Assembly (NCBI GenBank): GCA_043766615.1
Contig: JAYUHW010000337.1
Location: 1 to 57,646 of the forward strand
Direction of reading: 5' to 3'
From: Fibrobacteria bacterium
GTDB lineage: Bacteria > Fibrobacterota > Fibrobacteria > UBA11236
DNA length: 57,646 bases
Below the pieces are notes generated by a model. It had not been told where the DNA came from, did not search any database, and worked only from the letters and a program-made list of their open reading frames with translations. The translations under genes and the position numbers were made by a program. This document shows, piece after piece, positions 5,793-49,218 of the stretch; the stretch's first letter is position 1, and the number at the start of each line of letters is the position of its first letter.

Positions 5793-6497
5793 TTAGAGAA
5801 TGAGTTCCGCTGCCACGTAGAAGACCACGGCAAAGAACAAACCCATGTGGATGACGCCTTTGACCGTTTCAATAGGCTTCTTCATTGGGCCTTTATCGCC
5901 GGTTAGTGCATTGATTTCCAGAAGTGCGACGATGGCGACCACAAAGCCAAACCAAATGGCCACGCGCGTGGGATCAACGGCGATAGGCAGATGGCTAGCG
6001 GCGGCCATGAAAAAGAGTAGAGGAATGGATAGCATGGTATTGGTACGGGATGCCAAAAAGGCGCGCCGCGCCAGGGCTGGCAGATTGTCAACCTTTTCAC
6101 CGTTAGCGGAGGCGATGACTTTTTTTTGACGGGGCCAGATGACGAACCAGACGTTGAACCACATCACCGAACCCATGATGGCACCGGTCAAAATGGTGGT
6201 GCCCCAGCTGCTGTTGAGAAGGGCGGATGCATCTGCTCCAGCGAGACCGAATTTGATGAGGATGATGGACCAGCCGGTGATAAAGGTCCACATGGCGCCG
6301 TGTCGGAAGTAGAAAAGTGCGCGCGGGACCAAGCCTTGTGTGATGGCGGTTTTGGTGGGCGCCTCGGCTTTGGCCATGAATGGACCCTGCACGAAATTGA
6401 AATACCACAGCATGCCTATCCAGGCAATGCCGAAAATGAAATGGCCCCAGCGTAAAAGAAAAAGAAGTCCGTCCAAATTGCATAGCGCCCAATTCAT
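5793..6497 (-). CDS. Polytopic membrane protein resembling the membrane domain of urate hydroxylase PuuD
   Basis: LLRWGHFIFGIAWIGMLWYFNFVQ matches from memory the PuuD N-terminal signature. About six TM segments. Sits 5 nt upstream of the cytochrome c gene. Confidence 0.5.
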   Translation of the reverse strand: MNWALCNLDGLLFLLRWGHFIFGIAWIGMLWYFNFVQGPFMAKAEAPTKTAITQGLVPRALFYFRHGAMWTFITGWSIILIKFGLAGADASALLNSSWGTTILTGAIMGSVMWFNVWFVIWPRQKKVIASANGEKVDNLPALARRAFLASRTNTMLSIPLLFFMAAASHLPIAVDPTRVAIWFGFVVAIVALLEINALTGDKGPMKKPIETVKGVIHMGLFFAVVFYVAAELIL

Positions 6498-6596: not shown

Positions 6597-7973
6597 ATGA
6601 AATCCTTCCTCTCGGGTTGGGGCCGACAACCTATTCTGCCGGTTGAGGAAGAAATTCCCGAAAATTCAGGTGGCCTTGGTGCCATGCTCCAGGAGCCTTA
6701 TTTGGCCCGAGGTCTGGGGCGCAGCTACGGTGATGCGTCTCTTCCGGCCTCTGGTCATCGGTCCATAAACAATAAAAAGATCGACCGGTTCATTTCTTTC
6801 AATCCCGCCACCGGCGTTTTGGACGCGGAGGCGGGGGTGAGTCTATCCGCAATACTGTCCATTGCGATTCCGCGCGGTTATTTTCTACCGGTTACACCGG
6901 GTACTCAGCATGTGAGTTTGGGCGGGGCTTTGGCGAGCAATGTTCATGGAAAAAACCACCATAGAGTGGGGTCGCTGGAGCATTTTGTTTTGGAGATGGA
7001 GGTGTGCACGCCCACGGGAACCTGGATCTGTTCTCGGGAAAATCGGCTCGACCTCTTCCAGGCTACGCTCGGTGGATATGGGCTTACCGGCTATATTACC
7101 CGTGCCAAGCTTCGGCTTAAATCTATAGCCACATCCGATGTGGACGTATTGCGGGTACGGGCCGATAATTTGGATGCTCTCTTTGCGCTTTTCGCCCAGC
7201 ATGACAGCACCTTTGAATATTCCGTAGCCTGGCTCGATTGTTTGGCACGCGGACCTTCATTGGGTAGGGGTGTGCTCATGTTAGGCAATCATGCGAATGG
7301 GAATGCCGGGTTCACTGGGAATGCCGAGTCTATCGGGAGTGCCGGGACCAAACAGAGTTCGCGATTCAAATGGAGTATGGATCAGTGGAAGCTGAATGTT
7401 CCGTATCCCATGCCGCGTTTTCTGCTCAATCGTCCCGGCCTAGTTGCTTTCAATAACCTGTTCTTTAAGCTCGCGCCCAAGCAGGCCCAGGTGAGGCGCG
7501 AAGGATATCGAGGATTCTTTTATCCATTGGATCGCATAGAGAATTGGAATCTCCTGTATGGCAAATCCGGATTCTTCCAGTACCAATGTGTCATCCCCGA
7601 CCCAAAGGGTGAGGAGGGCATCCGGGCCTGTGTCCGCTTTTTGAGTGACAACCGGCTCGGAGCTTTTCTTTCTGTGCTCAAGCGCTGTGGCGACGATGAG
7701 GTGATGTTACCTTTTTGTCGACGAGGATACACCTTGGCACTGGACATTCCCTATCGCGGGAAGGAAACTTTGCGGTTACTGCACCTACTCGATGCTGTGG
7801 TCCTTGATTTTAAAGGACGCGTTTATCTGACCAAGGACGCTCGGTTGTCACCGGATACTTTTCGCGCCATGTATCCGGAAAGTGCGGCCTGGATGACGAC
7901 GGTCAGGCGTTATAATCCCGAAGCCAAGTGCAATTCACGAATGGCGGAGAGGCTTGAATTGTGGAAAGGATAG
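6597..7973 (+). CDS. FAD-dependent oxidoreductase, DprE1-like (decaprenylphospho-beta-D-ribofuranose 2-oxidase family)
   Basis: MKSFLSGWGRQP... and ARGLGRSYGDASL match the DprE1 N-terminal and FAD-binding signatures. I prefer ATG 6597 because the ORF-track start at 6501 leaves no room for the divergent promoter. Confidence 0.75.
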   Translation: MKSFLSGWGRQPILPVEEEIPENSGGLGAMLQEPYLARGLGRSYGDASLPASGHRSINNKKIDRFISFNPATGVLDAEAGVSLSAILSIAIPRGYFLPVTPGTQHVSLGGALASNVHGKNHHRVGSLEHFVLEMEVCTPTGTWICSRENRLDLFQATLGGYGLTGYITRAKLRLKSIATSDVDVLRVRADNLDALFALFAQHDSTFEYSVAWLDCLARGPSLGRGVLMLGNHANGNAGFTGNAESIGSAGTKQSSRFKWSMDQWKLNVPYPMPRFLLNRPGLVAFNNLFFKLAPKQAQVRREGYRGFFYPLDRIENWNLLYGKSGFFQYQCVIPDPKGEEGIRACVRFLSDNRLGAFLSVLKRCGDDEVMLPFCRRGYTLALDIPYRGKETLRLLHLLDAVVLDFKGRVYLTKDARLSPDTFRAMYPESAAWMTTVRRYNPEAKCNSRMAERLELWKG

Positions 7974-8719
7974 TCGTTTTCGGAGCGACCTCCGGTATCG
8001 CCTCGGCTGTATCTCGGGTTTTAATGGCCGAGGGTCAGGACCTGGTGTTGATTGGTCGATCGCAAGCGGCTTTGACAGCTTTAGCCCTTGAATTGGAAAA
8101 GGTGTCGGGTCGTTCCGTACCTTACCTTGTCTGGGATGTGCTCGATTTTGCGGAGCATGATGCAAGGTTCCGGGACTTGATCGCGGCGCATGCGGTGAAG
8201 GGGTTATTTTTTGCCGCGGGTGTTTTGATCTCTCAAGAAGAATGCGATCGGGAACCGGCCAAAACTCGCCTCACGATGGATTCTAATTTGACGGGTCCCG
8301 CTATGATTATCGGGCTGTTCGCCGAGTATTTTTTGGCGCAGAAAATGGCAGAACACGGTTCAAGGAAAACGGAACCTTTCATTAGCTGCATCTCTTCTGT
8401 AGCCGGAGATAGAGGCCGAGGTAAAGTGCTAGCCTATGCGGCCTCCAAGGCCGGTTTATCCGCCTATCTGGCTGGTCTTCGGCATCGACTTGCTGGCAGT
8501 GGTGTTTTGGTGCAAACCATCAAACCTGGTTTTGTCCAAACGCGGATGGTGGGAACCCTGAAAAGCCCGCTCATGGCCAAACCGGAACGAGTGGCGATGG
8601 AAATCGTCCGATCGCTTCGACAGCGGCGCGAAGTTGTGTACACCCCATTTTATTGGCGGTACATTATGGCAATCATAAAGTCCATTCCCGAACCTGTTTT
8701 CAAAAGGCTTAAGCTGTGA
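7961..8719 (+). CDS. SDR, DprE2-like (decaprenylphospho-2-keto-ribofuranose reductase family)
   Basis: GTG start overlapping the upstream gene by 13 nt. VVFGATSGIA Rossmann motif and YAASKAGL (YxxxK). Position between the DprE1-like and UbiA-like genes. Confidence 0.7.
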   Translation: MERIVVFGATSGIASAVSRVLMAEGQDLVLIGRSQAALTALALELEKVSGRSVPYLVWDVLDFAEHDARFRDLIAAHAVKGLFFAAGVLISQEECDREPAKTRLTMDSNLTGPAMIIGLFAEYFLAQKMAEHGSRKTEPFISCISSVAGDRGRGKVLAYAASKAGLSAYLAGLRHRLAGSGVLVQTIKPGFVQTRMVGTLKSPLMAKPERVAMEIVRSLRQRREVVYTPFYWRYIMAIIKSIPEPVFKRLKL

Positions 8720-9582
8720 AAAGTCTGTGGCGTTTAGCGCGTCCGTCACATTGGGTCAAGAATATTTTTGTATTGGCTGGAATTTTTTTCGCCCAAGATT
8801 GGCGGGACTCGGAAATTTTACTTCTGGCTCTTTCCGCATTTGTGGCTTTTTGCTTAGCTGCCAGCGCCGTTTATGCTTGTAATGATGTGTTCGATTTAGA
8901 AGAGGATCGCCATCATCCGCTTAAACGGCTGCGTCCGGTGGCCTCTGGGGAAGTGTCTGCTCCCTCTGCATTTGCTTTTGCTGCTGGACTTGCGGCGGCG
9001 GCGCTTGGCATCAGTTTATGGACGGGACCCAAGCTTTCCGCTGTCTTAGTGGCGTATATGTTGGTCAACTTATTCTATTCTCGGGTGCTCAAGCATATTG
9101 TGCTAGTGGATGTGTTTTGCATTGCTTTTGGATTCATCATCCGACTCTTGGCCGGCACCTGGGGCATTGGGATCCCGCCCTCGCAATGGTTTTTGCTTTG
9201 CACCATGGCCTTGAGTCTGTTCCTGGGTTTCTCGAAACGGTATGCAGAACGCATGGACACGCATCGGACTTTGGCGGAAAAGCGTCCCGTCCTGCAAAGT
9301 TATTCTCCCGAATTTCTGCGCCTCCTTTTGGCGGTCACTTTATCGGCAACACTCATCACCTATGGACTGTATACCACCAACATCCAGACGGTGGAAATTC
9401 ATCGTACCGGAAATCTCATCTACTCCTTGCCCATTGCCATGTTTGGTTTATTCCGATACCTTTATTTGGTGATGGAAAAAGGTTTTGGTGAAAATACGGT
9501 GGCGGATATTCTCAAAGATGGCGCCATGCTGAGCATCTGCGGTATTTATGTGGCTGTCGTGGCCTTGCTACTGGTTTATTGA
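8716..9582 (+). CDS. UbiA-family polyprenyl-phosphate phosphoribosyltransferase (decaprenyl-phosphate 5-phosphoribosyltransferase-like)
   Basis: GTGA start/stop overlap. HWVKNIFVLAGIFFA N-terminus, NDVFDLEEDRHHPLKRLRPVASGEVS (NDxxDxxxD prenyltransferase motif) and about eight TM segments. Confidence 0.8.
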   Translation: MKSLWRLARPSHWVKNIFVLAGIFFAQDWRDSEILLLALSAFVAFCLAASAVYACNDVFDLEEDRHHPLKRLRPVASGEVSAPSAFAFAAGLAAAALGISLWTGPKLSAVLVAYMLVNLFYSRVLKHIVLVDVFCIAFGFIIRLLAGTWGIGIPPSQWFLLCTMALSLFLGFSKRYAERMDTHRTLAEKRPVLQSYSPEFLRLLLAVTLSATLITYGLYTTNIQTVEIHRTGNLIYSLPIAMFGLFRYLYLVMEKGFGENTVADILKDGAMLSICGIYVAVVALLLVY

Positions 9583-9591
9583 AAGCCCGAT

Positions 9592-10899
9592 ATGATTCTT
9601 TCCTCCACCATACCTGGGCCATCGGAAAAACCGGCCCAGCGCCCTAATAAAAGCACAGCTCGGGTCTTGTGGGCGCTCTTTTCGCTGTTCATAGTCTATG
9701 GCACCACTTTTCCTTTTAGTTTCGATTTGGAAGCCTTGTCCATAACGGAAATGCAACGACGAGTCAATTGGAGTCCGTTCAGCGGACTGCCGGACATGGT
9801 ACAGAATATTCTCTTGTTCATGCCCTTCGGCTTTCTGGGGTACTTTTCCCTTATCCATAAAAGTTCCCGGCTACGAAAACTGGCCATTGTCCTCCTGGGT
9901 GCGGGCCTTAGCTTATCCGTTGAATTTCTGCAAATCTTTTCTGGGAACCGTTGGCCGGCTTTGGCGGACCTGCTTACTAATACAGCTGGAACAGCAGTGG
10001 GCTTGACCATGGGTCTCCTGCTCAAGAAATCAGTATTGGGTTTCAAGTCGCATCCGCTGAGCCGCCGGTTCTTAGATGCGCCGTCGGCTTTTCCCGCTTT
10101 GGTGTTTATCCTCCTGGTAGTAGCAGGAATTTGGGAACCCTTCGATTTTTCCTTGGATATCGGGGGCATCTGGAATCATGTCAAACCGATTTTGCACCAT
10201 CCCTTCCATTTCTCCTTGCCAGATGAAGATGTATTTGCCTGTATACAATTTCTGTTGGCTTCTCTCTTTCTGTGTAGGGTGTTCCAGGAATCGGGTTGGC
10301 ATCGGCCTGCCACGGCAGGCTTACTGGTGCTGTTCCTGGCCGGGATTAGTTTAGAAGCCAGTCAGTTCATCATTGTCTCGCGCTATCCGGAAGTGCAGGA
10401 CGTTCTGGTCGGCATGATGGGTACGACGCTAGGCGCGATACTTTTCCACTTTCCGGGATTCCGGGAACGCCCACGGATGTGGAGCCTGACCAGCGTACTG
10501 GGAATTTTTTCGGCCTCCATGGTTCGATCTTTACACCCCTTTCAATTTAAAACCAGCCCTACCCATTTTAACTGGATTCCGTTTCGGCCCCAATACGAGG
10601 CCACTACGGCTGCGGCCTTGGGTAACTTCTTGGCGAATGGGATGGTTTATTTTCCGATAGGGTTCCTGATTGGGTACTTTTTTCCAAAAGCAAGGCAAGC
10701 TACAAATGTGGCACTTATCATTTCCGGATGTATTGCTCTGATTTTGGAAACCGCGCAAGGCTGGGTCGTAGGGCGTTACTCGGATGTTACCTCGGTATTT
10801 GGAGCATTGTTGGGAAGCCTTCTGGGCAGCTTAGTATTGACCCGGGGTTGGCCGGCCTTTACGGAATATATGCGTCAAGATGAGGACCAGCAGGTTTGA
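9592..10899 (+). CDS. Polytopic membrane protein made of three tandem VanZ-like repeats
   Basis: About 12 TM segments. The VanZ-type motif E-x2-Q-x6-R-x5/6-D-x6/7-G occurs three times: SVEFLQIFSGNRWPALADLLTNTAGTAVG, SLEASQFIIVSRYPEVQDVLVGMMGTTLG and ILETAQGWVVGRYSDVTSVFGALLGSLLG. Confidence 0.65.
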   Translation: MILSSTIPGPSEKPAQRPNKSTARVLWALFSLFIVYGTTFPFSFDLEALSITEMQRRVNWSPFSGLPDMVQNILLFMPFGFLGYFSLIHKSSRLRKLAIVLLGAGLSLSVEFLQIFSGNRWPALADLLTNTAGTAVGLTMGLLLKKSVLGFKSHPLSRRFLDAPSAFPALVFILLVVAGIWEPFDFSLDIGGIWNHVKPILHHPFHFSLPDEDVFACIQFLLASLFLCRVFQESGWHRPATAGLLVLFLAGISLEASQFIIVSRYPEVQDVLVGMMGTTLGAILFHFPGFRERPRMWSLTSVLGIFSASMVRSLHPFQFKTSPTHFNWIPFRPQYEATTAAALGNFLANGMVYFPIGFLIGYFFPKARQATNVALIISGCIALILETAQGWVVGRYSDVTSVFGALLGSLLGSLVLTRGWPAFTEYMRQDEDQQV

Positions 10900-10917: not shown

Positions 10918-12117
10918 ATGAAATCGGATATACTGATCACGGGTGGCGGAATCGTGGGGCTGGCCACTGCCTGGCACCTCTTACAGCGTTTTCCGGATCG
11001 AAAAGTGCTGGTGTTGGAAAAAGAAGGTGGAATAGCGCGCCATCAAACTGGGCACAACAGCGGCGTCATCCACTCCGGCATTTATTACAAACCCGGAAGC
11101 TACAAGGCCAAACTTTGTCGCACCGGGTATGTGGATATGGTGGCATTCTGTAGAGAAAATCAGGTGCCATTTGAATTGTGTGGCAAATTGGTGTTGGCCA
11201 CATCTCCTGCAGAATTGCCCATGCTCGCTACGTTGCGCCAAAAAGCGGAAGCCAACGGGCTGGTAGGCGTTACTGAGTTGGCGGCCGAAGCGATTGCCGA
11301 GGTTGAGCCCCATGCAGTAGGACTTCGTGCGCTGCGTGTCCCAGAAACTGGCATTGTCGATTATGTGCGGGTGTGTGAAAAGCTGGTGGAAAAGATTAAG
11401 GCCAATGGTGGTGAGATCCATCTAAGCACCCGTGTGGAAGCCCTTCGCAATGTGCCGCATGGAAAAGTCGTCCGAACCGGAGAAGGTGAATTCGAAACGG
11501 AATTTTTCATCAATTGCGGTGGCTTGATGAGCGACCGCGTCGCCAGACTCGATGGGCTAGAGCCGGGTATCAGCATCGTTCCCTTTCGCGGGGAATACTT
11601 TGATCTGGTGCCGGCGGCGCAGGGGTTGGTAAAAAACCTTATTTATCCGGTGCCGGATCCAGCCTTTCCTTTTTTGGGGGTACATTTTACGCGCATGATA
11701 GGCGGCGGCATCGAGTGCGGGCCCAACGCAGTGTTGGCATTCGAGCGCGAAGGTTATAAAAAAACGGACTTCAATCTAAAGGATCTCGTGGAGATTTTAG
11801 CGAATCCCGGTTTCCGCAAATTGGCCGGAAAGCATTGGCGGATGGGCCTCGGGGAGTTTCACCGCTCCTTTTCCAAGTCTGCGTTTGTAAAAGCGCTGCA
11901 GCACCTGGTTCCCTCTATTACTTCGAAAGGTCTGGTACCCGCTGGCTCGGGTGTGCGCGCGCAGGCATTGCGTCCGGACGGCTCACTTGTCGACGACTTC
12001 TTTTTTGCAGAAGGGGAACGCAGCCTGCATGTGTTGAATGCCCCATCCCCAGCTGCCACGGCTTCGCTGGCGATTGGAAAGGAAATCGTATCGCGTTATG
12101 CTGCACGAAAGGCTTGA
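10918..12117 (+). CDS. lhgO: L-2-hydroxyglutarate oxidase (FAD-dependent)
   Basis: DILITGGGIVGLATAWHL dinucleotide-binding motif followed by RHQTGHNSGVIHSGIYYKPGSYKAKLC, which is characteristic of LhgO/YgaF. Confidence 0.85.
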   Translation: MKSDILITGGGIVGLATAWHLLQRFPDRKVLVLEKEGGIARHQTGHNSGVIHSGIYYKPGSYKAKLCRTGYVDMVAFCRENQVPFELCGKLVLATSPAELPMLATLRQKAEANGLVGVTELAAEAIAEVEPHAVGLRALRVPETGIVDYVRVCEKLVEKIKANGGEIHLSTRVEALRNVPHGKVVRTGEGEFETEFFINCGGLMSDRVARLDGLEPGISIVPFRGEYFDLVPAAQGLVKNLIYPVPDPAFPFLGVHFTRMIGGGIECGPNAVLAFEREGYKKTDFNLKDLVEILANPGFRKLAGKHWRMGLGEFHRSFSKSAFVKALQHLVPSITSKGLVPAGSGVRAQALRPDGSLVDDFFFAEGERSLHVLNAPSPAATASLAIGKEIVSRYAARKA

Positions 12118-12144: not shown

Positions 12145-13326
12145 TCACCTGGTACCAAAAAGCGGCAGCAAGCCACCAGAGAGATTGGCCTGCCAGGAAA
12201 GATTGGAAGTAATATGAGCGCGGGCTGCCTGTCCCATCTCTGCAACCAGCGCCGGGTTTCCGAGCAGTTTTTCCACGCAGGTCCGGAAGGCTTCCGCCTC
12301 TTCGGCAATGAGCAAATCCCGACCCGCTTCAGCATGGATACCGCCCAAGGCTTTGGGACTTACAACCACTGCTTTTCCGCAGGCCATGGCTTCGAGCACC
12401 TTGTTCTGCATTCCCCTGGCGATGCGGAGGGGAACCACTACCACATGGGCCTTGGCTTGTTCTTGGCGCATGTCCTCGACGAATCCTGTGACCGTAACAC
12501 CTTCGATACGGCCGAGAGCCTTTACCTTGTGACTGGGGTTGCTGCCCGCAATGATGAACCGGGCCTGGGGAAAAGTTTTCCGCAATGAAGGGAAAACTTC
12601 CTGCGCGAACCAGGACACACCCTCTTCATTGGGAAAATAGTCCATGGCGCCGGTGAATAGGATTCTTCCCGGCTCATAGGGTTCTGGACGGGGGGAAAAG
12701 AAGGAGGTATCCACGCCGTTACCCATGGAAAAAAGTTGGCCTTGGCCACCCAAATCCTGAAACAATTTTAGTTCGGCAGGAGTGATTAAAAAAGCGGCCA
12801 AGGCGGACTTGGACACTTTTTTTTCAAATGCCAGCATCCGCAGCGACTCCAGTTTATAAAACCAGGCTAGGTAAAACGGCATGCGTTCAGCGTAATTGTC
12901 CCACTTATGGGAATCAACATCGCAGAAATCAATGACAGTTCGACTGAGAAGTGATACAGGAATATATTGGGCCATTTGGCCGGAAAAAATGAAGATCTTT
13001 TCATGAGCGTGTTCGGCCAAGAGCTTATGGATAGCGCGCTGCATGCCCCCATGCGTATAGAGGGCTACGCTTAAAGGTTTTCGCAAGATAAAACCCGAGA
13101 TCATTTTCGCCAGTTTAAACCAGGGACTTCGCTCGAATACCGACACGGTTTTGCAAATGGCCCCAAGTTTGGCCAGGTAATTTTTATCCAAAGGGGAATC
13201 GATAAAACAGACAAGGTCGATTTCAAAATACTGCGATAGGTAAAGCAATTCATGGTAGGAGCGGATCTTGTCGCCCTTGTTTGGTGGGTAAGGGATGCGA
13301 TGAGCAATAAAAAGGAGTCGGGTCAT
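12145..13326 (-). CDS. Glycosyltransferase of the PEP-CTERM/EpsH1-system-associated sugar transferase type
   Basis: N-terminus MTRLLFIAHRIPYPPNKGDKIRSYHELLYL is typical of that family. C-terminal GT-B region PLRIARGMQNKVLEAMACGKAVV. Confidence 0.8.
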   Translation of the reverse strand: MTRLLFIAHRIPYPPNKGDKIRSYHELLYLSQYFEIDLVCFIDSPLDKNYLAKLGAICKTVSVFERSPWFKLAKMISGFILRKPLSVALYTHGGMQRAIHKLLAEHAHEKIFIFSGQMAQYIPVSLLSRTVIDFCDVDSHKWDNYAERMPFYLAWFYKLESLRMLAFEKKVSKSALAAFLITPAELKLFQDLGGQGQLFSMGNGVDTSFFSPRPEPYEPGRILFTGAMDYFPNEEGVSWFAQEVFPSLRKTFPQARFIIAGSNPSHKVKALGRIEGVTVTGFVEDMRQEQAKAHVVVVPLRIARGMQNKVLEAMACGKAVVVSPKALGGIHAEAGRDLLIAEEAEAFRTCVEKLLGNPALVAEMGQAARAHITSNLSWQANLSGGLLPLFGTR

Positions 13327-14366
13327 GGCAAGAATCGATTGAGTAGGGGGCCAACTATTTTAGAGGTCCATAGCGGCTGCCGGGACCAAAGCTTTAGGAA
13401 TAGGGCGAGCTTGGGATTGGATGGGTTGAAATCCGGCAGGTGGGTCTGGGTATTGAAAATATATTGGAAGGGCAGTGTATAGGGTTCGAATCCCATGTTC
13501 TTTTTGAAATCAAACGAGCCACTGCCGCGCCGGCTCTTGCCGAAATCGAATTCCCGACAACCTCGTTTAAGCCCGTGGCACATTAAGGCGTAATACATGT
13601 AATTGTTGGCACCGGTGGATCCGGCTTCATTCAGAGAACCGGAAAAATAAGGATTGCAGATATTCTTGAAATAGAAGGTCATGACGCCACAGAGAGCCCG
13701 ACCATTTTGCATTACAAAGAGGATATCCGCGTGTTCGCCCATCTCCTCCATGATGATGCGGAAGAAGGATTTAGGAAAAGCCGGCGTTCCCAGTTTTTTG
13801 AGATTGATGGCGGAAAGCTCCCACAAGCGTTCCCAATCTTTATTGATGATATAGGTCAAGCCGTAATTGGTCATAGCCTTTCTCACTGTGGCGCGAGATT
13901 TACGCGGGATGGATTCCAGACAAGCTGCTTCACTTGCTGGCAGAGCCTTGGCAAATTTTACGTGAAGATCCGTGCCCGGCAAGTTGAGCCCAGTTGGATG
14001 GGTGTTGCGCAGATGCACCATGCCCGCATTCGTTTGTTGCGCGAGCCTCGTGCACTCTCCCTGCAGCACTTCCGAGGTGGCCGAATTGTCTGTGAGCATG
14101 CCTCCGTAGGCGGTATAGGGGAGCGAGTACAAGCTAGTCCGCCCCGACAGTCCACGCACCCGGCTCAGACTCACGACTCCGCGGACCTGGCTGCTTTCGA
14201 GGGAAGCAATATGGTAGTAGGGGCGGCGAAAACTTTTCCAAAGGATATCCAACCAGCGAGTGGTGTGGAATACAGTCCCGGCAGGATGGTTTTCCACAAA
14301 TGCGTCCCAGGCGCTCCGGGCAGTAACTGGCATTGGATTTTCCTGGGTCCAAATCTGGAGAGGCAC
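13323..14366 (-). CDS. FemAB-family (GNAT-fold) protein, PEP-CTERM-system-associated type
   Basis: WDAFVENHPAGTVFHTTRWLDILWKSF and FDFGKSRRGSGSFDFKKNMGFEP resemble the FemAB-like exosortase-locus family. ATGA overlap with the downstream glycosyltransferase. Alternative start at 14333. Confidence 0.7.
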   Translation of the reverse strand: MPLQIWTQENPMPVTARSAWDAFVENHPAGTVFHTTRWLDILWKSFRRPYYHIASLESSQVRGVVSLSRVRGLSGRTSLYSLPYTAYGGMLTDNSATSEVLQGECTRLAQQTNAGMVHLRNTHPTGLNLPGTDLHVKFAKALPASEAACLESIPRKSRATVRKAMTNYGLTYIINKDWERLWELSAINLKKLGTPAFPKSFFRIIMEEMGEHADILFVMQNGRALCGVMTFYFKNICNPYFSGSLNEAGSTGANNYMYYALMCHGLKRGCREFDFGKSRRGSGSFDFKKNMGFEPYTLPFQYIFNTQTHLPDFNPSNPKLALFLKLWSRQPLWTSKIVGPLLNRFLP

Positions 14367-14602
14367 GGGGAGTTCCTGGGGAAAAGTGGTCGAACTTGAA
14401 ATTGAACAATATCAAGGAGAATAGGAAAGATCAAAAGCGGCATGTTTCCAGATTATTATTTCCATGTTTGTCGAAATTGTTTACAGCGTCGTATCACAAA
14501 CCGAAATTCCTGAAGGAACCAAGTGAAGGGAAGTTGTTGAGAGAGTTCAAAAATCCTAACTTTTCACTTACCCGGCAGAAAATTACGGATCGAGGTAGAC
14601 GA

Positions 14603-15313
14603 ATGGCCAATAGAATGAATGTTTGGTGGGCAGGACGCCGGATAATTCTGGCTCTAGTCCTGACAGCTTCTTCTACTGTTCTGCTTCAGGCGGAGGTCAA
14701 AACTCATTTCAGCGAGGAGCGATTCGTCGCCGGCGAAGCCATGCTGCTGGAAGTGCCTCTCGACTCTACTTCCATTCTAAAAGGTGGCTATCCTATTGAC
14801 TCTGCCGGATTCGCGGACCTTCCCGTTTTGGGACTGCTTGAGGTGGGAGGTAAGACCCGAGCAGAGGTGGAAGAGTACCTGGGCCTAAAACTTGCAAATT
14901 ATCTGCGGGACACGCATATTCGGGCCCAACCAGCTATCCGTCTAACACTCCTGGGGTTTTGGACTCGGCAGGGACAGTACTATGTGAGCCCCAAAGCCAC
15001 AGTTTGGGACGCGGCTTATCTGGCTGGGGGCATGGCCGGGGAGCGCACGCTGGATAAAATTACAGTCAGACGAGGCGAACAGATATTGAAGATCAGTTTT
15101 CTCGATGAATATTCCCGAGGTAGGACTTTAGAATCGGCCGGAATACACTCTGGAGATATTTTCGTCATGCCCGTGCCCAGAGACAATACCGGAGCCTGGT
15201 ACTGGTTCACGCAGTCCTTGACAGTGACCGCCCAAGTTGCGACTATCGCTAGCACCCTGCTCACGGTATATATCACCTACTACTTCTTGGATAACAACAC
15301 CGCACCCCGCTAA
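14603..15313 (+). CDS. Small polysaccharide export protein (Wza/Poly_export-like, PEP-CTERM-locus type)
   Basis: ATG 14603 preceded by GAGGT. Signal peptide RRIILALVLTASSTVLLQAE, Poly_export-like GGYPIDSAGFADLPVLGLLEVGGKTRAEVEEYL, and a C-terminal hydrophobic helix. The ORF-track start at 14333 would overlap the divergent femAB-like gene. Confidence 0.75.
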   Translation: MANRMNVWWAGRRIILALVLTASSTVLLQAEVKTHFSEERFVAGEAMLLEVPLDSTSILKGGYPIDSAGFADLPVLGLLEVGGKTRAEVEEYLGLKLANYLRDTHIRAQPAIRLTLLGFWTRQGQYYVSPKATVWDAAYLAGGMAGERTLDKITVRRGEQILKISFLDEYSRGRTLESAGIHSGDIFVMPVPRDNTGAWYWFTQSLTVTAQVATIASTLLTVYITYYFLDNNTAPR

Positions 15314-15334
15314 TGGGTCGGAATGGAACATTGC

Positions 15335-17287
15335 ATGTGTGGCATAGCCGGTAGTATCAACCGAGAGGGTCGCACGCCTGAACAAGGCGTTCTGCAGGCC
15401 ATGACACGAGCCTTGACCCATCGCGGTCCGGATGAAGAAGGGTACCATATTCGGGAAGGCGTGGGGCTGGGCCAGCGCCGCCTCAGCATCATCGATCTTT
15501 CCGGGGGCCGGCAGCCGATTTACAATGAAGACGGCAGCCTCTGCGTTGTTTTCAACGGAGAGATCTTCAACTACATCGAACTCCGCGAAATTCTCATCAA
15601 ACACGGCCATGCCTTTGCCACGCATACGGACACGGAAGTTATTGTGCATGCCTATGAGCAGTATGGCATGGATTTCCTCAACCATTTGAACGGCCAATTC
15701 GCCATCGCCCTGTGGGATGCGAAAAAACAGAAATTGATCCTGGCCCGGGACCGCGTAGGCATCCGTCCGCTTTTTTATGCCACGGCTCCGGACGGGGCGC
15801 TTATTTTTGCATCAGAAATTAAATCCCTCTTTCAATATCCCGGTATGCGCGCCGAAATCGATCCCGCCGGAGTGGGCCAAACCTTCACCTTATGGGTCAG
15901 CGTTCCACCCCGCACCGTGTTCAAGGGCATCCAGGAATTGCCGCCCGGCCGTTACCTTACCGCTACCCCAGAAGCCGTGCACATCCACCAGTATTGGCAT
16001 TACCGCTTTCCGGATGCGGGTGAATACGAAGACAAGCCCATTGAGTATTTCACCGAAAGGCTCACGGAAATCCTGTACGATGCCACCACCCTGCAGCTTA
16101 GAGCCGACGTGCCGGTGGCCGCCTATCTAAGTGGTGGTATCGACTCGTCCATCATCTCGGCCTTGGTCAAGAAACACCACAACAATTCTCTCATCACGTT
16201 TTCCGTGGCCTTCAAGGATGCCGCCTATGACGAGCGCCCCTATCAGATGGAGATGGTGGAGTATCTCAAAACCGATCACCGCATGATAGAAATGGATTAT
16301 CCGGAAATCGGCACCGCTTTTTCGGACGTGATGTGGTATGCTGAACGCCCCATGATCCGCACCGCACCGGCGCCACTGCTCAGACTCTCGGGTCTGGTCC
16401 GAAAAAACGGCATAAAGGTGGTGCTCACGGGCGAGGGTGCTGATGAGATCTTCGGGGGTTACAATATTTTCCGTGAAGACAAAGTACGTAGATTCTGGGC
16501 CAGGCAACCGGATTCAAAATTCCGGCCACAGCTGATTTCGTCCCTGTACCATTACATCAACAAAAACCCCCAGGCCCAGGCTTTCTGGCGCATGTTCTTC
16601 AAAAAGGGACTGACCGATACGGGTAATCCATATTACTCCCATCTTATCCGTTGGAACAATACTTCGCAGCTGAAAGGGATCTTCGCCGACTCGTTCCGCG
16701 ACCAGATGGGAACGGAGGAGGAGATACTGGAGGATGTAGCTGCTTATCTGGATCCGGAAATGAAACGTTGGGATCCCCTATGTCGGGCCCAGTATCTGGA
16801 AATGGATTTGTTCATGTCCGGCTATCTGCTTTGCTCACAAGGCGACCGCATGATGATGGGCAATTCCGTGGAGGGGCGCTTTCCTTTCCTGGATCATCGC
16901 GTGATCGAATTTGCCGCCACCATTCCGCCCAAGTATAAGATCAAAATTCTGACGGAAAAGCATGTGCTCAAGAAGGCCTACGAGAAGCTGCTTCCGGAAC
17001 GGATTGTAAACCGTCCCAAGCAGCCCTACCGCGCACCCATCAGCCAATGCTTCATTGAAGGCGGTAATTTGTCGGCCGACTTGCTCACACCGGACAAGCT
17101 CAAGGAGTACGGCTACTTCAACGTGGAGCAGGCTGATAGGCTTATCTCCAAGGCGCGCAAGAATGCGGAGAAGCAGATCAGCGCCCGTGACGACATGGCC
17201 ATGGTGGCCATGGTATCCATGCAGTTGCTACACCATCATTTCATTCGTCCGGAAGCAAAGGGAGAGAATTCCCCTCCCTCTAAATGA
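15335..17287 (+). CDS. asnB: Asparagine synthase family amidotransferase (glutamine-hydrolysing), paralog 1
   Basis: An Ntn glutaminase needs Cys2, so the start is MCGIAGSI at 15335. PP-loop AYLSGGIDSSIISALV. About 650 aa. Confidence 0.9.
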   Translation: MCGIAGSINREGRTPEQGVLQAMTRALTHRGPDEEGYHIREGVGLGQRRLSIIDLSGGRQPIYNEDGSLCVVFNGEIFNYIELREILIKHGHAFATHTDTEVIVHAYEQYGMDFLNHLNGQFAIALWDAKKQKLILARDRVGIRPLFYATAPDGALIFASEIKSLFQYPGMRAEIDPAGVGQTFTLWVSVPPRTVFKGIQELPPGRYLTATPEAVHIHQYWHYRFPDAGEYEDKPIEYFTERLTEILYDATTLQLRADVPVAAYLSGGIDSSIISALVKKHHNNSLITFSVAFKDAAYDERPYQMEMVEYLKTDHRMIEMDYPEIGTAFSDVMWYAERPMIRTAPAPLLRLSGLVRKNGIKVVLTGEGADEIFGGYNIFREDKVRRFWARQPDSKFRPQLISSLYHYINKNPQAQAFWRMFFKKGLTDTGNPYYSHLIRWNNTSQLKGIFADSFRDQMGTEEEILEDVAAYLDPEMKRWDPLCRAQYLEMDLFMSGYLLCSQGDRMMMGNSVEGRFPFLDHRVIEFAATIPPKYKIKILTEKHVLKKAYEKLLPERIVNRPKQPYRAPISQCFIEGGNLSADLLTPDKLKEYGYFNVEQADRLISKARKNAEKQISARDDMAMVAMVSMQLLHHHFIRPEAKGENSPPSK

Positions 17288-17291
17288 GCAC

Positions 17292-18191
17292 CTAAACCCG
17301 CATAGCCGAGAGGGCGCGGATGTCTCCGACTTCGTCCGGCCAGGTTTCCACCTCAGTCAAGTCCGGGTTTTTCGCCAATTGAGCCGCCAAGGCCTTACCT
17401 TGGCCGAGTCCCACTTCAAAACACATGTAGGACCCGGATCTTAAAAAGCGTGGCGCATTTTTGAGAAACTTGGTCAAAATGGAAATGCCGAATACTCCGC
17501 CGTTGAAAGCCAGCTGCGGCTCGAAAGCGGAAATCTCCCTTGCCATGGCCGATACCTTTGCCGTGGAAATATAGGGTGGATTGCAGCTCAGTAAATCAAC
17601 CTGCCCCAGAAAATCCGGTGACTCGAAAGGGACGAGAAGATCGCCTTGCCGGAATTCAGTACGGTCCGAAAGGCCCGTGAACTCGCGGTTGCGGTTGGCC
17701 AGATCCACCGCTTCCTGGGAAAGGTCAGCGCCGTAAACGCGCGCCTTGGGTTCATGGTATGCGTAGGCCAGGGCTAGATTACCGCTGCCCGTACACACGT
17801 CCACCACCAGCGCTTGACCGCGGCTTTGCACCAAGGTCTTGAGTTTGGCCAGCGCGGCTAGGCCCACGATTTCCGTCTCACGGCGCGGAATAAGCGCACC
17901 GGGTCCGGCGATGAGCTCCAATCCGAGAAAACTCTGCCGCTCAGTCAAATGCCCAAGCGGTATCCCGGATTTCTTTTTCTCTAATAGTTCGCGAAGCGCT
18001 GCGGCGGCCGGTTCGTTTAAATCATGGAGAGGCGTTTGTCCGGCTTTGACTACGGATACCTGGTTGCCGGAAGCTTTGAGCCATAGGGCCTTGAGCACGG
18101 CATCGACAGTCTCCTCGGGCTTGTCGGGCAAGGGTTGCCAAAAAGCTTGGACTTCGGCCAGTAGGTCCGGATATTGGGAAACGGCTATCAT
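17292..18191 (-). CDS. HemK/PrmC-family SAM-dependent methyltransferase (NPPY class)
   Basis: LIPRRETE, SAM motif VDVCTGSGNLAL, the NPPY tetrapeptide (SCNPPYIS) and FEPQLAFNGG. ATGA overlap with the upstream ligase gene. Confidence 0.75.
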   Translation of the reverse strand: MIAVSQYPDLLAEVQAFWQPLPDKPEETVDAVLKALWLKASGNQVSVVKAGQTPLHDLNEPAAAALRELLEKKKSGIPLGHLTERQSFLGLELIAGPGALIPRRETEIVGLAALAKLKTLVQSRGQALVVDVCTGSGNLALAYAYHEPKARVYGADLSQEAVDLANRNREFTGLSDRTEFRQGDLLVPFESPDFLGQVDLLSCNPPYISTAKVSAMAREISAFEPQLAFNGGVFGISILTKFLKNAPRFLRSGSYMCFEVGLGQGKALAAQLAKNPDLTEVETWPDEVGDIRALSAMRV

Positions 18192-19780
18192 GAAGGTGTC
18201 CCGGTTAGCAGTCCCTTTTTGCGGATTTTTCCGGTAGCCGTTTTCGGTAATTCAGGAAGGAACACCACTTCTTTGGGTACCATGAAATTCTCTAACTTTG
18301 CCAGGCAATGCGCCTTGATTTCCTTTTCTGACAGGGTAACTCCATCGTTCAAGGCAATGTAAGCGCGGATGGCCTCGCCCATGAGTGGGTCCGGAAAACC
18401 AAGCACCGCAGCCTCGCGCACGCCCGGAATTCCATGCAAACAATTCTCCACCTCGATAGGGCTCACCTTTTCGCCGCGCGATTTGATGATGTCGTCGTTG
18501 CGCCCCACAAAATAAAGGCACCCGTCCTCGTCCATCTTGAAAAAATCCTGGCTGCAAAGGATACGCTCCCAAGGCAATCTGCCCGGTTTGAGCATATGCG
18601 CGCTCAGTTCGGGTTGATTCCAGTAGCCTACCATGACATGCGGCCCGCGGATGTATAAGATGCCGGTTTCTCCCGTAGGAACGGGCTTGCCTTCTTCCGA
18701 GAGCAGGAAAACTTCGGTGCCGGGGATGGCGCGGCCCACGGAATCCGGTTTCTGAGAGACAAGCTCCGGCTCCAGGTAACATACGCGTTTACACTCGGTC
18801 AAACCGTACATGCGGAAGACCAGGGCCTTAGGAAAGATCTCCTGCAGTCTGGGAACGATATCGGCAGGTAGCGCTGCGGCCGTATTGGTGATGCGCCTGA
18901 CGGAAGGAAAGGCCAAGGGATGCTTGGCGTGCATGCCAAGCAGGGTCATATACACGGTGGGTACGCCCGGAAAAACCGTCACCTCCTGCTCCTTGAGCCG
19001 ATTCAGAATTTGGGCCGGATAGGTGAAAGAACGCTCCAAGACGAGGGTTGCACCAAGGCGAATGGTCATGAGAAGCTGGTATAACCCGTAGTCAAATGCC
19101 AAGGGCAATAGATTCATGATGCGGTCGGTTTCGTCCAGCCGCAGATACTCTATGAGGCTTCCGGCTGTAAAGGTCATGTTTTGATGCGTCATCATCACTC
19201 CCTTGGGATTGCCAGTGCTTCCAGAGGTGTAGATGAGGGCGGCCAAATCGATAGCTATGGTGGCCGGATTGGGAACTACGGGTTCCGCGCCTGCCAGGGC
19301 GTCGTCGAAAGAGAGGATTTCGAAACCCTCCACCTGGGGCCGATTGCCGGAGCAGAGGATTTGCAGCAAGGAGGGGGCTCGACAGAGCACTTCCGAGAAA
19401 ACTTTGGCCAGATGGCCGTCCGTGATGAGCGCCTTGGGGGTGCAGTCGTTGAGTATGTATTCGAGTTTGTCGGTCTTGGTTTGCGGATTGACGACGATGA
19501 ACACTCCGCCGGCCAGAGAAGTTCCGAAGATGGAGATGAGGCATGGCCAGGTATTGTCCATGTAAATGGCGACGCGATCACCGCGCTCCACCCCGGCTTG
19601 GCGGAGTAAGCCGGATAACCGTTGGGCGGAATCAAGCAGTGCTGCATAGGTGTAGGGAACACCTTCGATTACCGCAGCCTGCTTCTCCGGAGTTCGTGCC
19701 GCAGAAGACAAAAGGCTATCGTGTAGCAATCGCTGGAAAGTATGGCCCATATCCGCTCCTTGAAAATGATGGGAGGGCAT
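18188..19780 (-). CDS. AMP-forming adenylating ligase (acyl-CoA ligase-like, exosortase-system-associated type)
   Basis: ANL-superfamily motifs YTSGSTGNPKGVMMTH, YGLTE and GEILIRG-like GILYIRGPHVMVGYW. C-terminal K in ATGKIRKK. Alternative start MGHTFQRLL at 19750. Confidence 0.9.
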   Translation of the reverse strand: MPSHHFQGADMGHTFQRLLHDSLLSSAARTPEKQAAVIEGVPYTYAALLDSAQRLSGLLRQAGVERGDRVAIYMDNTWPCLISIFGTSLAGGVFIVVNPQTKTDKLEYILNDCTPKALITDGHLAKVFSEVLCRAPSLLQILCSGNRPQVEGFEILSFDDALAGAEPVVPNPATIAIDLAALIYTSGSTGNPKGVMMTHQNMTFTAGSLIEYLRLDETDRIMNLLPLAFDYGLYQLLMTIRLGATLVLERSFTYPAQILNRLKEQEVTVFPGVPTVYMTLLGMHAKHPLAFPSVRRITNTAAALPADIVPRLQEIFPKALVFRMYGLTECKRVCYLEPELVSQKPDSVGRAIPGTEVFLLSEEGKPVPTGETGILYIRGPHVMVGYWNQPELSAHMLKPGRLPWERILCSQDFFKMDEDGCLYFVGRNDDIIKSRGEKVSPIEVENCLHGIPGVREAAVLGFPDPLMGEAIRAYIALNDGVTLSEKEIKAHCLAKLENFMVPKEVVFLPELPKTATGKIRKKGLLTGTPS

Positions 19781-19856
19781 TAAGCCTATATTTTTTAAGT
19801 ATCAGGTGCAAGGATCGGAAGCGATCCGCGCTTGGGTTCACAAGAGAGTCCGCGGA

Positions 19857-21299: not shown

Positions 21300-21317
21300 G
21301 AAGTATCCTTTAATCCA

Positions 21318-22673: not shown

Positions 22674-22733
22674 TATACCTTCGCGAGGGCAGGACTACAA
22701 ATTCTTTTCCACTTTTTTCTAGTTTTCGAATCC

Positions 22734-26883: not shown

Positions 26884-26893
26884 GGTCAACGCA

Positions 26894-29409: not shown

Positions 29410-29460
29410 TTTTGATTCCTATTTCGGCTAGAATCTGTGCATCCCCAGATTGGAAACCAC

Positions 29461-32217: not shown

Positions 32218-32290
32218 ACTGTTTTGCTAGTTCAAGCCGATTCGGTTGAGCTTTTTTCCATTGCCTAGGTTTTGTACTTTTCCGCTCCGT

Positions 32291-33658: not shown

Positions 33659-33681
33659 AAGCGGCGGTTGGAACTTGAACT

Positions 33682-35574: not shown

Positions 35575-35610
35575 AACCTGAACCCCATTTTCATTACTCC
35601 CGAGTGATGT

Positions 35611-37955: not shown

Positions 37956-38191
37956 CAGTACCGTAAAGCCTCAATCCAAAGCAGATCTTTTCCAGATTCA
38001 AACCGACCATGGTTCAAAGTAAAACTTAACTAAATGAAAGGCATCGTCCATTTGCATGCCACGACTGGCTGCGGGTAGCATGTTATTTTTAAGGCGACTG
38101 CAATTGAAAATCAAGTCCAAATTGGGTAGATTCTGGCCCCTACCGGATCCGGTTTACTGGACCCGGATCTAATCCATCACGACAGGGAACC

Positions 38192-39307: not shown

Positions 39308-39316
39308 GAGATAGAA

Positions 39317-41454: not shown

Positions 41455-41530
41455 TTATATTTTTTTCTCTTAGGCCAGAAAAATTCAATCACGCTTTGTA
41501 AATGCAAGGCCTTTCATCCAGGATGGAAAC

Positions 41531-41797: not shown

Positions 41798-41828
41798 GTG
41801 TAAAGGCACCTAGGCATTTGAGCATACA

Positions 41829-43156: not shown

Positions 43157-43179
43157 TCTCCATCGCTGCGACGGATCCT

Positions 43180-45458: not shown

Positions 45459-45480
45459 TGACAACCGGAAGGAGCCCTAA

Positions 45481-47034: not shown

Positions 47035-47037
47035 CCC

Positions 47038-49051: not shown

Positions 49052-49090
49052 ATGTTCTTCCTGAATAGGTCGTGGTTCAATGTTAAATTT

Positions 49091-49108: not shown

Positions 49109-49218
49109 GAAATCTTAAGCTCTCCTTTTCAATATGCGGATATGCTTTGGTAAAAGCGTAAAAAATCCCGACAAGGAGGTATTTTTTTTACAACTCGTCC
49201 GAAAATTTAAAAGCTGAT

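Follow-up and report, generated by a model that had tools for sequence, protein, structure and literature searches.

A predicted polyprenyl-phospho-arabinofuranose cassette beside a triple-VanZ membrane protein at the edge of an exosortase exopolysaccharide island in a Fibrobacteria bacterium

Does a membrane protein whose gene directly follows three genes for a lipid-linked sugar donor act on that sugar, or do two modules with separate histories lie side by side? The question is raised by four genes at positions 6597-10899 of a stretch of 57,646 nucleotides from a Fibrobacteria bacterium (GTDB UBA11236; assembly GCA_043766615.1, contig JAYUHW010000337.1), which is called the window throughout. 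The first three genes (the trio) encode a DprE1-like FAD oxidase, a DprE2-like short-chain dehydrogenase/reductase (SDR) and a UbiA-type protein, and the fourth encodes a triple-VanZ protein (VanZ3). A sequence-only reading had compared the trio with the mycobacterial decaprenylphosphoryl arabinose (DPA) pathway, and had asked whether the VanZ-like protein flips or transfers the lipid-linked pentose or whether the sugar feeds an exopolysaccharide (EPS) island further downstream. The DPA-type assignment stands and the supply of the EPS island is reasonable; a VanZ protein that flips or transfers the pentose is not borne out. On balance, and with some reserve, we favour two side-by-side modules, not one dedicated four-gene pathway: as its gene context shows, the VanZ3 family belongs to XrtA/PEP-CTERM exopolysaccharide systems, and the trio has been inherited separately. 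The genes of the cluster and its left neighbour are as follows.

5793..6497, minus strand: Urate_ox_N-like membrane protein, divergent left neighbour (PF06181, 62 bits)
6597..7973, plus strand: DprE1-like FAD oxidase gene (open reading frame (ORF) call)
7961..8719, plus strand: DprE2-like SDR gene (ORF call)
8716..9582, plus strand: UbiA-type gene (ORF call)
9592..10899, plus strand: VanZ3 gene, 435 aa (ORF call)
10918..12117, plus strand: L-2-hydroxyglutarate-oxidase-like FAD enzyme (DAO), fifth co-oriented gene (NF008726, 556 bits against a cutoff of 299)

All ORFs of the four tightly packed, co-oriented genes are present on the plus strand as first noted, and the motifs LSGWGRQP, ARGLGRSYGD and NDVFDLEEDRHHPLKRLRP occur in the encoded proteins as earlier quoted. 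An alternative first ATG at 6501 would give a DprE1-like protein of 490 aa; the start at 6597 agrees with the length of most homologues and with the earlier call. The DprE1/SDR and SDR/UbiA junctions are overlaps of 13 and 4 nt, the UbiA/VanZ3 junction is a gap of 9 nt, and the DAO gene begins 18 nt after VanZ3. The first terminator-like hairpin after the cluster lies at 12161-12178, and a terminator scan of the cluster gave no convincing terminator before 12161. Because of these overlaps and short gaps and the lack of an earlier terminator, the trio and VanZ3 are probably co-transcribed. The promoter and terminator scan returned 2 promoter-like sites against 6.1 expected, its terminator-like hits were weak, and Rfam and tRNA scans of the window gave no match. 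The nearest relatives of all the genes come from metagenome-assembled genomes of uncultured Fibrobacterota/Fibrobacteria. The Urate_ox_N-like gene is paired, divergently and upstream of the trio, with one for a small c-type cytochrome (5416-6497, minus strand).

Pfam and NCBIfam agree with the earlier naming of the four products as DprE1-like, DprE2-like, UbiA-type and 12-transmembrane VanZ-like. The first protein matches FAD_binding_4 in Pfam, and its top NCBIfam model is DprE1 (332.6 bits; next family 42 bits), a score below the equivalog cutoff of 500, so that strict orthology to the mycobacterial enzyme is not reached. Its nine top matches among PDB sequences are all DprE1 of Mycobacterium smegmatis or M. 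tuberculosis (E 3.4e-61 to 1e-56), and the next family appears only at E 7e-07; HGKNHH and the Lys aligned with K418 of M. tuberculosis are kept, and Ala stands at the position of Cys387. The second protein scores 95 bits on adh_short, and on NCBIfam the DprE2 model (136.3 bits, cutoff 250) comes second to the generic PRK07102 (224.3 bits, cutoff 267), again short of strict orthology; M. tuberculosis DprE2 aligns end to end at E 2.6e-20 and is the sole PDB chain below 1e-15. The third, a UbiA member in Pfam, exceeds two equivalog models for decaprenyl-phosphate phosphoribosyltransferase, NF008977 (258.7 against 234) and NF008978 (216.2 against 207), reaches just 39.8 bits on the haem O synthase model, and matches Rv3806c (PDB 8j8j) at E 8e-38 with the NDxxDxxxD...KRxRP motif aligned. 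Each gene thus has its mycobacterial counterpart (DprE1, DprE2 or Rv3806c) as its best solved-structure match, which places the three enzymes in DPA-type families and not in unrelated FAD-oxidase, SDR or UbiA clades such as the menaquinone or haem O prenyltransferases. Since all three match the mycobacterial DPA enzymes best, polyprenyl-phospho-D-arabinofuranose is the most likely product of the trio as judged by homology.

The remaining functions of such a pathway do not appear in the window. GT-C, HAD, PAP2 and GtrA Pfam families were absent among the scanned window ORFs of at least 150 aa, and six-frame tblastn of the 57.6-kb window with the PMT_2 GT-C, HAD and GtrA proteins of a Nitrosomonadales locus (L060; labels of this kind denote loci) gave no match, in keeping with the earlier remark that no GT-C arabinosyltransferase is recognisable nearby. 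The 5'-phosphatase, a small flippase (GtrA/SMR or MATE) and the GT-C enzyme may be encoded outside the window. Four sizeable EPS-island ORFs are without Pfam or NCBIfam match (21318-22673 and 37011-37955, minus strand; 42982-44289 and 44286-45458, plus strand); by hydropathy none is a multi-pass membrane protein, so they offer no hidden GT-C candidate. Inositol-monophosphatase-family genes lie a few kb from the trio in two loci without VanZ3 (L063:16820-17641 and L064:6493-7263); such a gene is a possible candidate for the missing 5'-phosphatase, and none was seen in the window.

VanZ domains have been described as Lipocone-superfamily enzymes predicted to act on the phosphate head groups of polyprenyl-linked glycans (PMC12419801), and a Ca2+-dependent pyrophosphatase activity on lipid-linked oligosaccharides has been demonstrated or proposed for yeast Llp1, VanZ and Escherichia coli YfiM (bioRxiv 10.64898/2026.09.16.752124). 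VanZ3 reaches 124.7 bits on Pfam VanZ (PF04892; gathering score 30.1) in three separate stretches, the only family found in its Pfam scan, with neither a GT-C nor a flippase family, and it consists of 12 transmembrane helices in three tandem VanZ/Lipocone domains (about residues 20-155, 160-290 and 290-430). In its AlphaFold2 model, built with 66 homologues (pLDDT 87.9, pTM 0.84), 12 long helices are arranged as 3 x 4. Residues invariant or nearly so in these homologues are N72, E111, Q114, R120, D126 and N130 in domain 1, E255, Q258, R264 and D270 in domain 2, from which the H2 Asn is absent, and E386, Q389 and D398 in domain 3. They align with the N57/E92/Q95/D107/N111 motif of Tn1546 VanZ-A: domain 1 retains the H2 Asn, the H3 ExxQ and the H4 D...N, and domains 2 and 3 retain the H3 Glu/Gln, the conserved Arg and the H4 Asp. 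Motifs were compared because the residues H87/E128/R137/D143/D147 (bioRxiv 10.64898/2026.09.16.752124) are not placeable on the 161-aa Tn1546 VanZ-A. The density of Lys and Arg is 0.17 in the proposed cytoplasmic loops against 0.07 in the periplasmic ones, and VanZ3 is predicted to have its N-terminus inside, which brings each of the three motif clusters to helix ends on the periplasmic side. A Foldseek search of the model against the PDB gave no match at E <= 0.001 (best E 0.65) and no GT-C entry among the 50 matches listed; MATE structures matched weakly (E >= 1.1, TM-scores <= 0.20). By these features, and by analogy with its characterised relatives, VanZ3 is most likely a phosphoesterase or transesterase that faces the periplasm and works on flipped polyprenyl-(pyro)phosphate-linked glycans in the exosortase pathway for EPS; its role would be polymer release or hand-over, quality control or carrier recycling.

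An exhaustive HMMER search returned at least 105 VanZ3 clusters at 50% identity (E <= 1e-30). Because most of the 150 matches listed are 400-450 residues long and align nearly over their full length in one stretch, the triple-VanZ architecture defines a distinct family. Seven remote relatives are fusions of 737-1021 aa with the VanZ region N-terminal (L024, L029, L031, L032, L035, L039 and L042), and in one of them, L032, a PHP phosphoesterase domain follows that region. Two smaller observations concern the end of the protein. At residue 401 (10792-10794), which corresponds to the second Asp of a D-I-T-D motif of domain 3 and is Asp in at least 90% of 20 aligned homologues, the window protein carries Ser; in this organism alone the third site may be altered. 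The C-terminal tail D-x-Q-V (here DEDQQV; 10885-10899), which resembles a short cytoplasmic recognition motif, is kept in the nine closest VanZ3 proteins (53-67% identity) and is lost or altered in remoter homologues.

A scan of one genome per GTDB species gave 49 loci with triple-VanZ relatives and a metagenome scan 80 further VanZ3 loci, and a survey of their neighbourhoods found VanZ3 together with the trio only within one Fibrobacteria clade. Among the metagenome loci 73 are distant (<45% identity), and the trio is present in none of them. An exosortase lies 1.3-6.4 kb upstream of VanZ3 in 13 of the 18 distant loci that have at least 5 kb of upstream sequence. At L085 the exosortase exceeds the XrtA model (228.8 against 208) and the gene order is PrsT-like TPR protein, XrtA, PrsT-like TPR protein, VanZ3, stp2-like glycosyltransferase; at L108 an XrtA-amidotransferase-like gene stands immediately before VanZ3. 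L003 and L004, whose VanZ3 proteins are 32-34% identical, have a FemAB-family gene directly upstream, which in L003 exceeds the pepcterm_femAB model TIGR03019 (371 against 260) and in L004 is a FemAB/Acetyltransf_6 homologue. In eight loci of the Kangiellaceae group, homologues of the exosortase-A ligase and of the pyridoxal-phosphate-dependent decarboxylase are placed divergently upstream of VanZ3 (at L023 they exceed TIGR03098, 743.8 against 592, and TIGR03099, 560.7 against 478), and a ninth locus has the ligase only. The association of VanZ3 with exosortases is strong, yet it falls short of the whole family: other distant multi-VanZ proteins, among them alphaproteobacterial 737-aa fusions as well as L033, L041, L044 and L047, have mixed neighbours (MscS, DUF938, histidine kinases, ABC transporters, GT9) with no common theme.

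VanZ3 looks like an accessory of XrtA/PEP-CTERM systems that has so far gone undescribed. No model that ties VanZ to exosortases was found in NCBIfam, and there VanZ3 matched vanZ models only and the trio DPA-type and generic models only. Literature searches found no paper linking exosortase with VanZ, only plant cell-wall papers for VanZ and arabinofuranose, and no paper on decaprenylphosphoryl enzymes in Fibrobacter. The context tables of the Lipocone paper list Exosortase_EpsH at 1 locus and tie UbiA to YfiM-1, not to VanZ (PMC12419801).

Within the Fibrobacterota, gene order at the relatives' loci was read by tblastn with the window proteins. The conserved order is Urate_ox_N (minus strand), DprE1, SDR, UbiA, in some cases a FemAB paralogue, VanZ3 and DAO; it is found whole or to the contig end in L005-L012, L014, L015 and L021, whose VanZ3 proteins are 47-69% identical to that of the window, and again in the metagenome contigs L054 and L067, while L069 spans only UbiA, the FemAB paralogue and VanZ3. 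The link between the trio and VanZ is thus not peculiar to this genome, being shared by about 12 species-level Fibrobacterota genomes and several metagenome contigs. The Urate_ox_N-like gene (69-79% identical; located upstream in divergent orientation, before the trio or VanZ3, in L001, L005, L007-L013, L015, L016 and L021) marks the left edge of the synteny block, and is kept beside the locus when the trio is absent (L013, L016). The most persistent Fibrobacterota neighbour of VanZ3 is DAO, downstream and mostly directly so (L001, L005-L015, L017, L019, L020, L054, L065-L068, L070 and L075); it accompanies VanZ3 without the trio in L017, L019, L020 and L075. In about half of the Fibrobacterota relatives a paralogue of the PEP-CTERM FemAB gene stands between UbiA and VanZ3. 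Four loci carry VanZ3, usually with DAO, without the trio (L013, L016, L019, L020). In L017 (9185-9935) a DprE1 remnant (aa 1-133 and 405-456) directly precedes an intact VanZ3 gene, with SDR and UbiA gone: here the cassette has decayed and VanZ3 was retained. Downstream in L062 (14661-16244) and L013 (10402-11984), a gene for a single VanZ domain comes immediately before a FemAB-like (Acetyltransf_6) gene, and this second VanZ-FemAB pairing of these genomes suggests that VanZ domains and FemAB proteins of the PEP-CTERM type are functionally tied in a more general way.

Genes of the trio also occur without VanZ3 in other contigs (L056, L058, L060, L063 and L064), in varied company. In L056, DprE1 and SDR lie beside a glucose/sorbosone dehydrogenase (GSDH) gene, directly upstream of DprE1, with UbiA 9 kb off; L058 has the trio with DegT and GT2 genes, and L063 beside ThiS, GT4 and valyl-tRNA synthetase. 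In L064 the trio sits inside a cluster of glycosyltransferase, methyltransferase, FemAB-like, acyl carrier protein (ACP) and AMP-ligase genes, and the Nitrosomonadales locus L060 has the canonical set: PMT_2 GT-C, DprE1, SDR, HAD, a 615-aa protein, UbiA and, further on, GtrA.

Separate inheritance is seen directly when the window is compared with its two closest relatives, L006 and L054. Among the three lineages the trio is 91-100% identical in nucleotide sequence (81% in one interval of the comparison) and identity drops within a few bases of the UbiA stop codon, with VanZ3 genes only 55-86% and DAO genes 60-89% identical. At third positions of codons for identical amino acids, the trio reaches an identity of 0.82-0.96 over all three pairings, VanZ3 one of 0.42-0.67 and DAO one of 0.50-0.63. 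Sharp recombination breakpoints fall at gene boundaries, at 9565-9590 (the UbiA/VanZ3 junction) and at 10900-10964, and VanZ3 and DAO are discordant with each other, L054 being nearer by VanZ3 and L006 by DAO. The trio has thus been shared recently as one block, with VanZ3 and DAO forming recombination blocks of their own; this argues against an obligate partnership between the trio and VanZ3. We also considered VanZ3 as a hypervariable, serotype-like gene comparable to the type-specific GT-C genes of Gtr systems, and rejected this because it is more diverged than DAO with respect to L006 and less with respect to L054; what stands out in the comparison is how well the trio is conserved, not how variable VanZ3 is.

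The window itself carries a complete exosortase (XrtA/PEP-CTERM) EPS island from 12145, just past DAO and about 1.2 kb downstream of VanZ3, where the sequence-only reading had placed its start. Its parts are listed here, with scores against cutoffs.

12145..14366, minus strand: stp1-type glycosyltransferase and PEP-CTERM FemAB, island start (TIGR03087, 410.7 against 316.65; TIGR03019, 314.2 against 260.35)
14333..48273, strand not specified: EPS island body (Pfam scans; TIGR03098, TIGR03097, TIGR03108)
45481-47034: Wzx-like flippase (Pfam scan)
48341..57409, strand not specified: exosortase-system core
48341-49108, minus strand: PEP-CTERM protein (PF07589)
49219-49860, minus strand: EpsI (TIGR02914, 51.3 against 42.8)
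49850-50719, minus strand: exosortase (PF09721 Exosortase_EpsH, 190 bits; TIGR02602, 152.4 against 105.55)
50716-52632, minus strand: TPR protein (TPR families)
52727-55204, plus strand: Wzc-like chain-length/kinase protein
55211-57409, plus strand: PrsK-like histidine kinase (TIGR02916, 289.9 against a cutoff of 300)

The island body encodes a Poly_export-like protein, three asparagine-synthase-type amidotransferases, GT4 glycosyltransferases, an MBOAT protein, a UDP-GlcNAc 2-epimerase, a DegT aminotransferase, a relative of the exosortase-A-type acyl-CoA ligase (TIGR03098, 447 bits, below cutoff) and a Wzy_C/PEP O-ligase-like protein. TIGR03097 is matched there at 156.6 bits, below cutoff, and TIGR03108 at 449 bits.

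How the two modules might work can be outlined as follows. Module 1 (6597-9582) would be a cytoplasmic-face donor-sugar cassette, in which the UbiA-type enzyme moves ribose-5-phosphate from phosphoribosyl pyrophosphate (PRPP) to polyprenyl phosphate, a 5'-phosphatase encoded elsewhere strips the 5'-phosphate, the DprE1-like flavoenzyme oxidises C2' and the DprE2-like SDR reduces the C2' keto group with inverted configuration. The chemistry is that expected from homology, and its product, polyprenyl-phospho-D-arabinofuranose, would be a donor for glycosylation outside the cytoplasm, with flippase and transferase encoded elsewhere. As acceptor, the glycan of the neighbouring exosortase EPS island or some other glycan of the envelope would be the most likely; the earlier suggestion that the sugar goes into this island fits the gene context. 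Module 2 (9592-10899) would be a triple-VanZ integral membrane enzyme with three outward-facing, acidic-rich sites which, by analogy with Llp1, VanZ and YfiM, would most likely cleave or trans-esterify the phosphate head group of flipped polyprenyl-(pyro)phosphate glycans, thereby releasing or handing over the polymer and recycling the carrier lipid. In one Fibrobacteria clade the cassette seems to have been inserted between the Urate_ox_N-like gene and VanZ3; trio and VanZ3 are now probably co-transcribed, and both are thus likely to be expressed together with EPS production.

Several observations weigh against this picture of two modules. Some distant multi-VanZ loci have unrelated neighbours (histidine kinases, ABC transporters). 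The adjacency of the trio and VanZ3, in the same order and on the same strand, persists across lineages whose VanZ3 proteins are only 47-66% identical to that of the window, and the phosphatase, flippase and GT-C enzyme are missing from every trio-VanZ3 operon. Because the adjacency persists in one clade and the canonical partners are missing there, a direct link between VanZ3 and the pentose is conceivable, though unlikely. Within module 1, SDR is absent at the L001/L070 locus and UbiA at the L066 locus, where the missing enzyme may lie at another place in the genome or the pathway may be different or lost; and as DprE1 and DprE2 fall under their equivalog cutoffs, another 2'-epimerised or 2'-keto pentofuranose may be the product. 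Within module 2, the topology of VanZ3 is deduced from charge bias and a published model.

Four other explanations have been weighed, of which the strongest contender denies any shared pathway: the cassette would decorate another glycan (lipopolysaccharide or a glycoprotein), VanZ3 would serve only exosortase EPS or carrier-lipid recycling, and their proximity would be purely syntenic. The separate recombination blocks agree with this, as do the VanZ3-DAO and Urate_ox_N-VanZ3 synteny without the trio (L013, L016, L019, L020) and the trios of L056 and L063, whose surroundings are lpxK, GT4 and methyltransferase genes instead of EPS or exosortase genes. The operon-like spacing without an evident terminator speaks against it, and so do the position of the cluster, which in the window, L001, L005 and L012 borders directly on the stp1/FemAB side of the exosortase island, and the embedding of the L064 trio among glycosyltransferase, FemAB-like, ACP and AMP-ligase genes, and we regard it as rather doubtful. 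A direct action of VanZ3 on the lipid-linked pentose, in whatever form, seems unlikely. In its plainest form VanZ3 would be the consumer of the pentose, a non-GT-C enzyme that moves pentose or pentosyl-1-phosphate from flipped polyprenyl-P-arabinofuranose to EPS or another acceptor and replaces the GT-C enzyme. The 9-nt junction with UbiA on the same strand, kept in about 12 Fibrobacterota species genomes, the lack of a GT-C gene in the window and within 10 kb on either side of the related loci examined, the transesterification on lipid-carrier head groups proposed for VanZ families in the Lipocone paper (PMC12419801), and active sites predicted to lie on the periplasmic side, on which such a donor is used, are all compatible with it. 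Against this stand the 73 of 73 distant metagenome loci, and the sister Fibrobacterota, that have VanZ3 but no trio, the trio without VanZ3 in other Fibrobacterota-like contigs, the Nitrosomonadales trio that comes with PMT_2 GT-C, HAD and GtrA, and the separate recombination histories; moreover, the GT-C gene is also unlinked from the synthesis genes in Pseudomonas aeruginosa, and glycosyl transfer is known for no VanZ-family member. We consider such a consumer improbable, and equally so a composite in which VanZ3 is a so far unrecognised core exosortase-A/PEP-CTERM enzyme, a three-site Lipocone transesterase that works on flipped polyprenyl-phosphate-linked glycans, releases or attaches EPS and, in the Fibrobacteria clade, additionally performs GT-C-free pentofuranosyl(-phosphate) transfer from polyprenyl-P-arabinofuranose.

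The two remaining explanations fare worse. VanZ3 might replace the Rv3807c/HAD phosphatase and strip the 5'-phosphate from polyprenyl-P-ribose-5-P before DprE1 and DprE2 act, given that neither a PAP2 nor a HAD phosphatase was found in the operon or window, that VanZ-family enzymes are phosphoesterases on polyprenyl-linked sugars, and that 5'-dephosphorylation is done by structurally unrelated enzymes in different systems (Kelly et al., PMC11127046). The compartments are at odds with this, the VanZ3 sites being predicted periplasmic and PRPP-dependent synthesis cytoplasmic; the DprE1- and DprE2-like proteins appear to have no signal peptide (N-termini read by eye), and P. aeruginosa DprE1 has been localised to the cytoplasm. 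The known VanZ-family activity, besides, hits the lipid-proximal pyrophosphate and not a distal sugar 5-phosphate, VanZ3 and the trio are phyletically independent, and in P. aeruginosa the 5'-phosphatase is dispensable or replaceable, the 6245 mutant being only partly affected; we find this role very improbable. Least credible of all is a flippase or scramblase taking polyprenyl-P-arabinofuranose to the outer leaflet. The 12 helices in a three-fold repeat and the lack of a GtrA/SMR or dedicated MATE flippase in the operon would suit it, but VanZ3 has no structural similarity to MOP/MATE, GtrA or PDB transporters (best E and MATE TM-scores as given above), each repeat is a four-helix Lipocone enzyme domain with conserved catalytic-type residues, and a Wzx-like flippase is present in the island. 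For flippase and transferase alike, three Lipocone domains without a significant GT-C or flippase match in the PDB, a family that tracks exosortase loci across phyla, a trio confined to one Fibrobacteria clade among VanZ3 loci, and the separate histories of the two turn the balance towards two modules.

The favoured arrangement of two modules can be set beside known systems. In the mycobacterial DPA pathway (Rv3806c, Rv3807c, DprE1 Rv3790, DprE2 Rv3791, Rv3789 and the Emb/Aft GT-C enzymes), homologues of Rv3806c, DprE1 and DprE2 are found here with their motifs aligned; unlike that pathway, the Fibrobacterota cluster has no PAP2 phosphatase, GtrA/SMR-type Rv3789 or GT-C arabinosyltransferase nearby, its lipid is probably undecaprenyl and not decaprenyl, and its DprE1 and DprE2 stay under the equivalog cutoffs, with the Ala at the Cys387 position as a further difference. 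DPA-type cassettes outside Actinobacteria are already known. Three-component systems with a polyprenyl-phosphate 5-phosphoribosyltransferase (PPPRS; Rv3806c type), phosphatase, epimerase, flippase and GT-C serve to build pentofuranose side chains on glycans of Gram-negative bacteria (Kelly et al. 2024, PMC11127046). D-Araf glycosylation of group IV pilin in P. aeruginosa uses PsPA7_6245-6251, with the GT-C gene tfpW unlinked (bioRxiv 10.1101/2020.04.19.049825). As in the former, a PPPRS with auxiliary DprE1/E2 epimerases would here yield a polyprenyl-P-pentofuranose for extracytoplasmic glycosylation; as in the latter, the transferase is unlinked to the synthesis genes, and because tfpW is unlinked from its own cluster, the lack of a nearby GT-C gene is not unusual. 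Both differ from the present locus, where the operon and window hold no GT-C enzyme, the operon has no flippase and the window none dedicated to this donor, and the cassette abuts a triple-VanZ gene and an exosortase island. New here is a Fibrobacterota DPA-type cassette without linked GT-C, phosphatase or flippase, beside a triple-VanZ enzyme.

Set beside the VanZ, Llp1 and YfiM pyrophosphatases and the VanZ-1 family of the Lipocone superfamily, VanZ3 has the Pfam VanZ domain and a four-helix core whose H2 Asn, H3 ExxQ and H4 Asp (with Asn) align with Tn1546 VanZ-A; it shares with the VanZ-1 family an association with exopolysaccharide genes. It differs from the duplicated betaproteobacterial VanZ-1, whose second copy is inactive (PMC12419801), in having three domains that all keep the H3 Glu and the H4 Asp, and its association with exosortase, PrsT, pepcterm_FemAB and PPPRS-DprE genes is not described in the Lipocone paper. 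Like other XrtA/PEP-CTERM systems, the window has exosortase, EpsI, a PEP-CTERM protein, a TPR protein, a PrsK-like kinase, an stp1 glycosyltransferase, pepcterm_FemAB and amidotransferases; VanZ3 relatives lie inside such loci in several lineages, yet no VanZ-family component was found listed for these systems in NCBIfam or the literature.

The findings extend DprE1/DprE2/PPPRS cassettes to uncultured Fibrobacterota, in which they behave as a module that borders on an exosortase EPS island and is exchanged independently, and lead to the prediction that D-arabinofuranose or a related pentofuranose occurs in a Fibrobacterota surface glycan. They also identify a distinct triple-VanZ family with consistent neighbours (exosortase A, PrsT, pepcterm_FemAB and related markers). 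VanZ3 is a concrete, testable candidate for the lipid-linked-polymer step of XrtA/PEP-CTERM systems. Cleavage of lipid-linked glycans by the VanZ family has only recently been shown (bioRxiv 10.64898/2026.09.16.752124).

Two further genes of the island may be mentioned. The asparagine-synthase-type ORF at 22143-24698 (plus strand) encodes 851 aa with catalytic domains from about residue 229, and its 5' part overlaps the opposite-strand ORF 21318-22673, so that the real start is probably further downstream. Close by, at 19857-21299 on the minus strand, lies a PQQ-type GSDH gene, and GSDH genes recur close to the DprE1-like gene or to VanZ3/DAO in Fibrobacterota loci (L001, L056, L061, L063).

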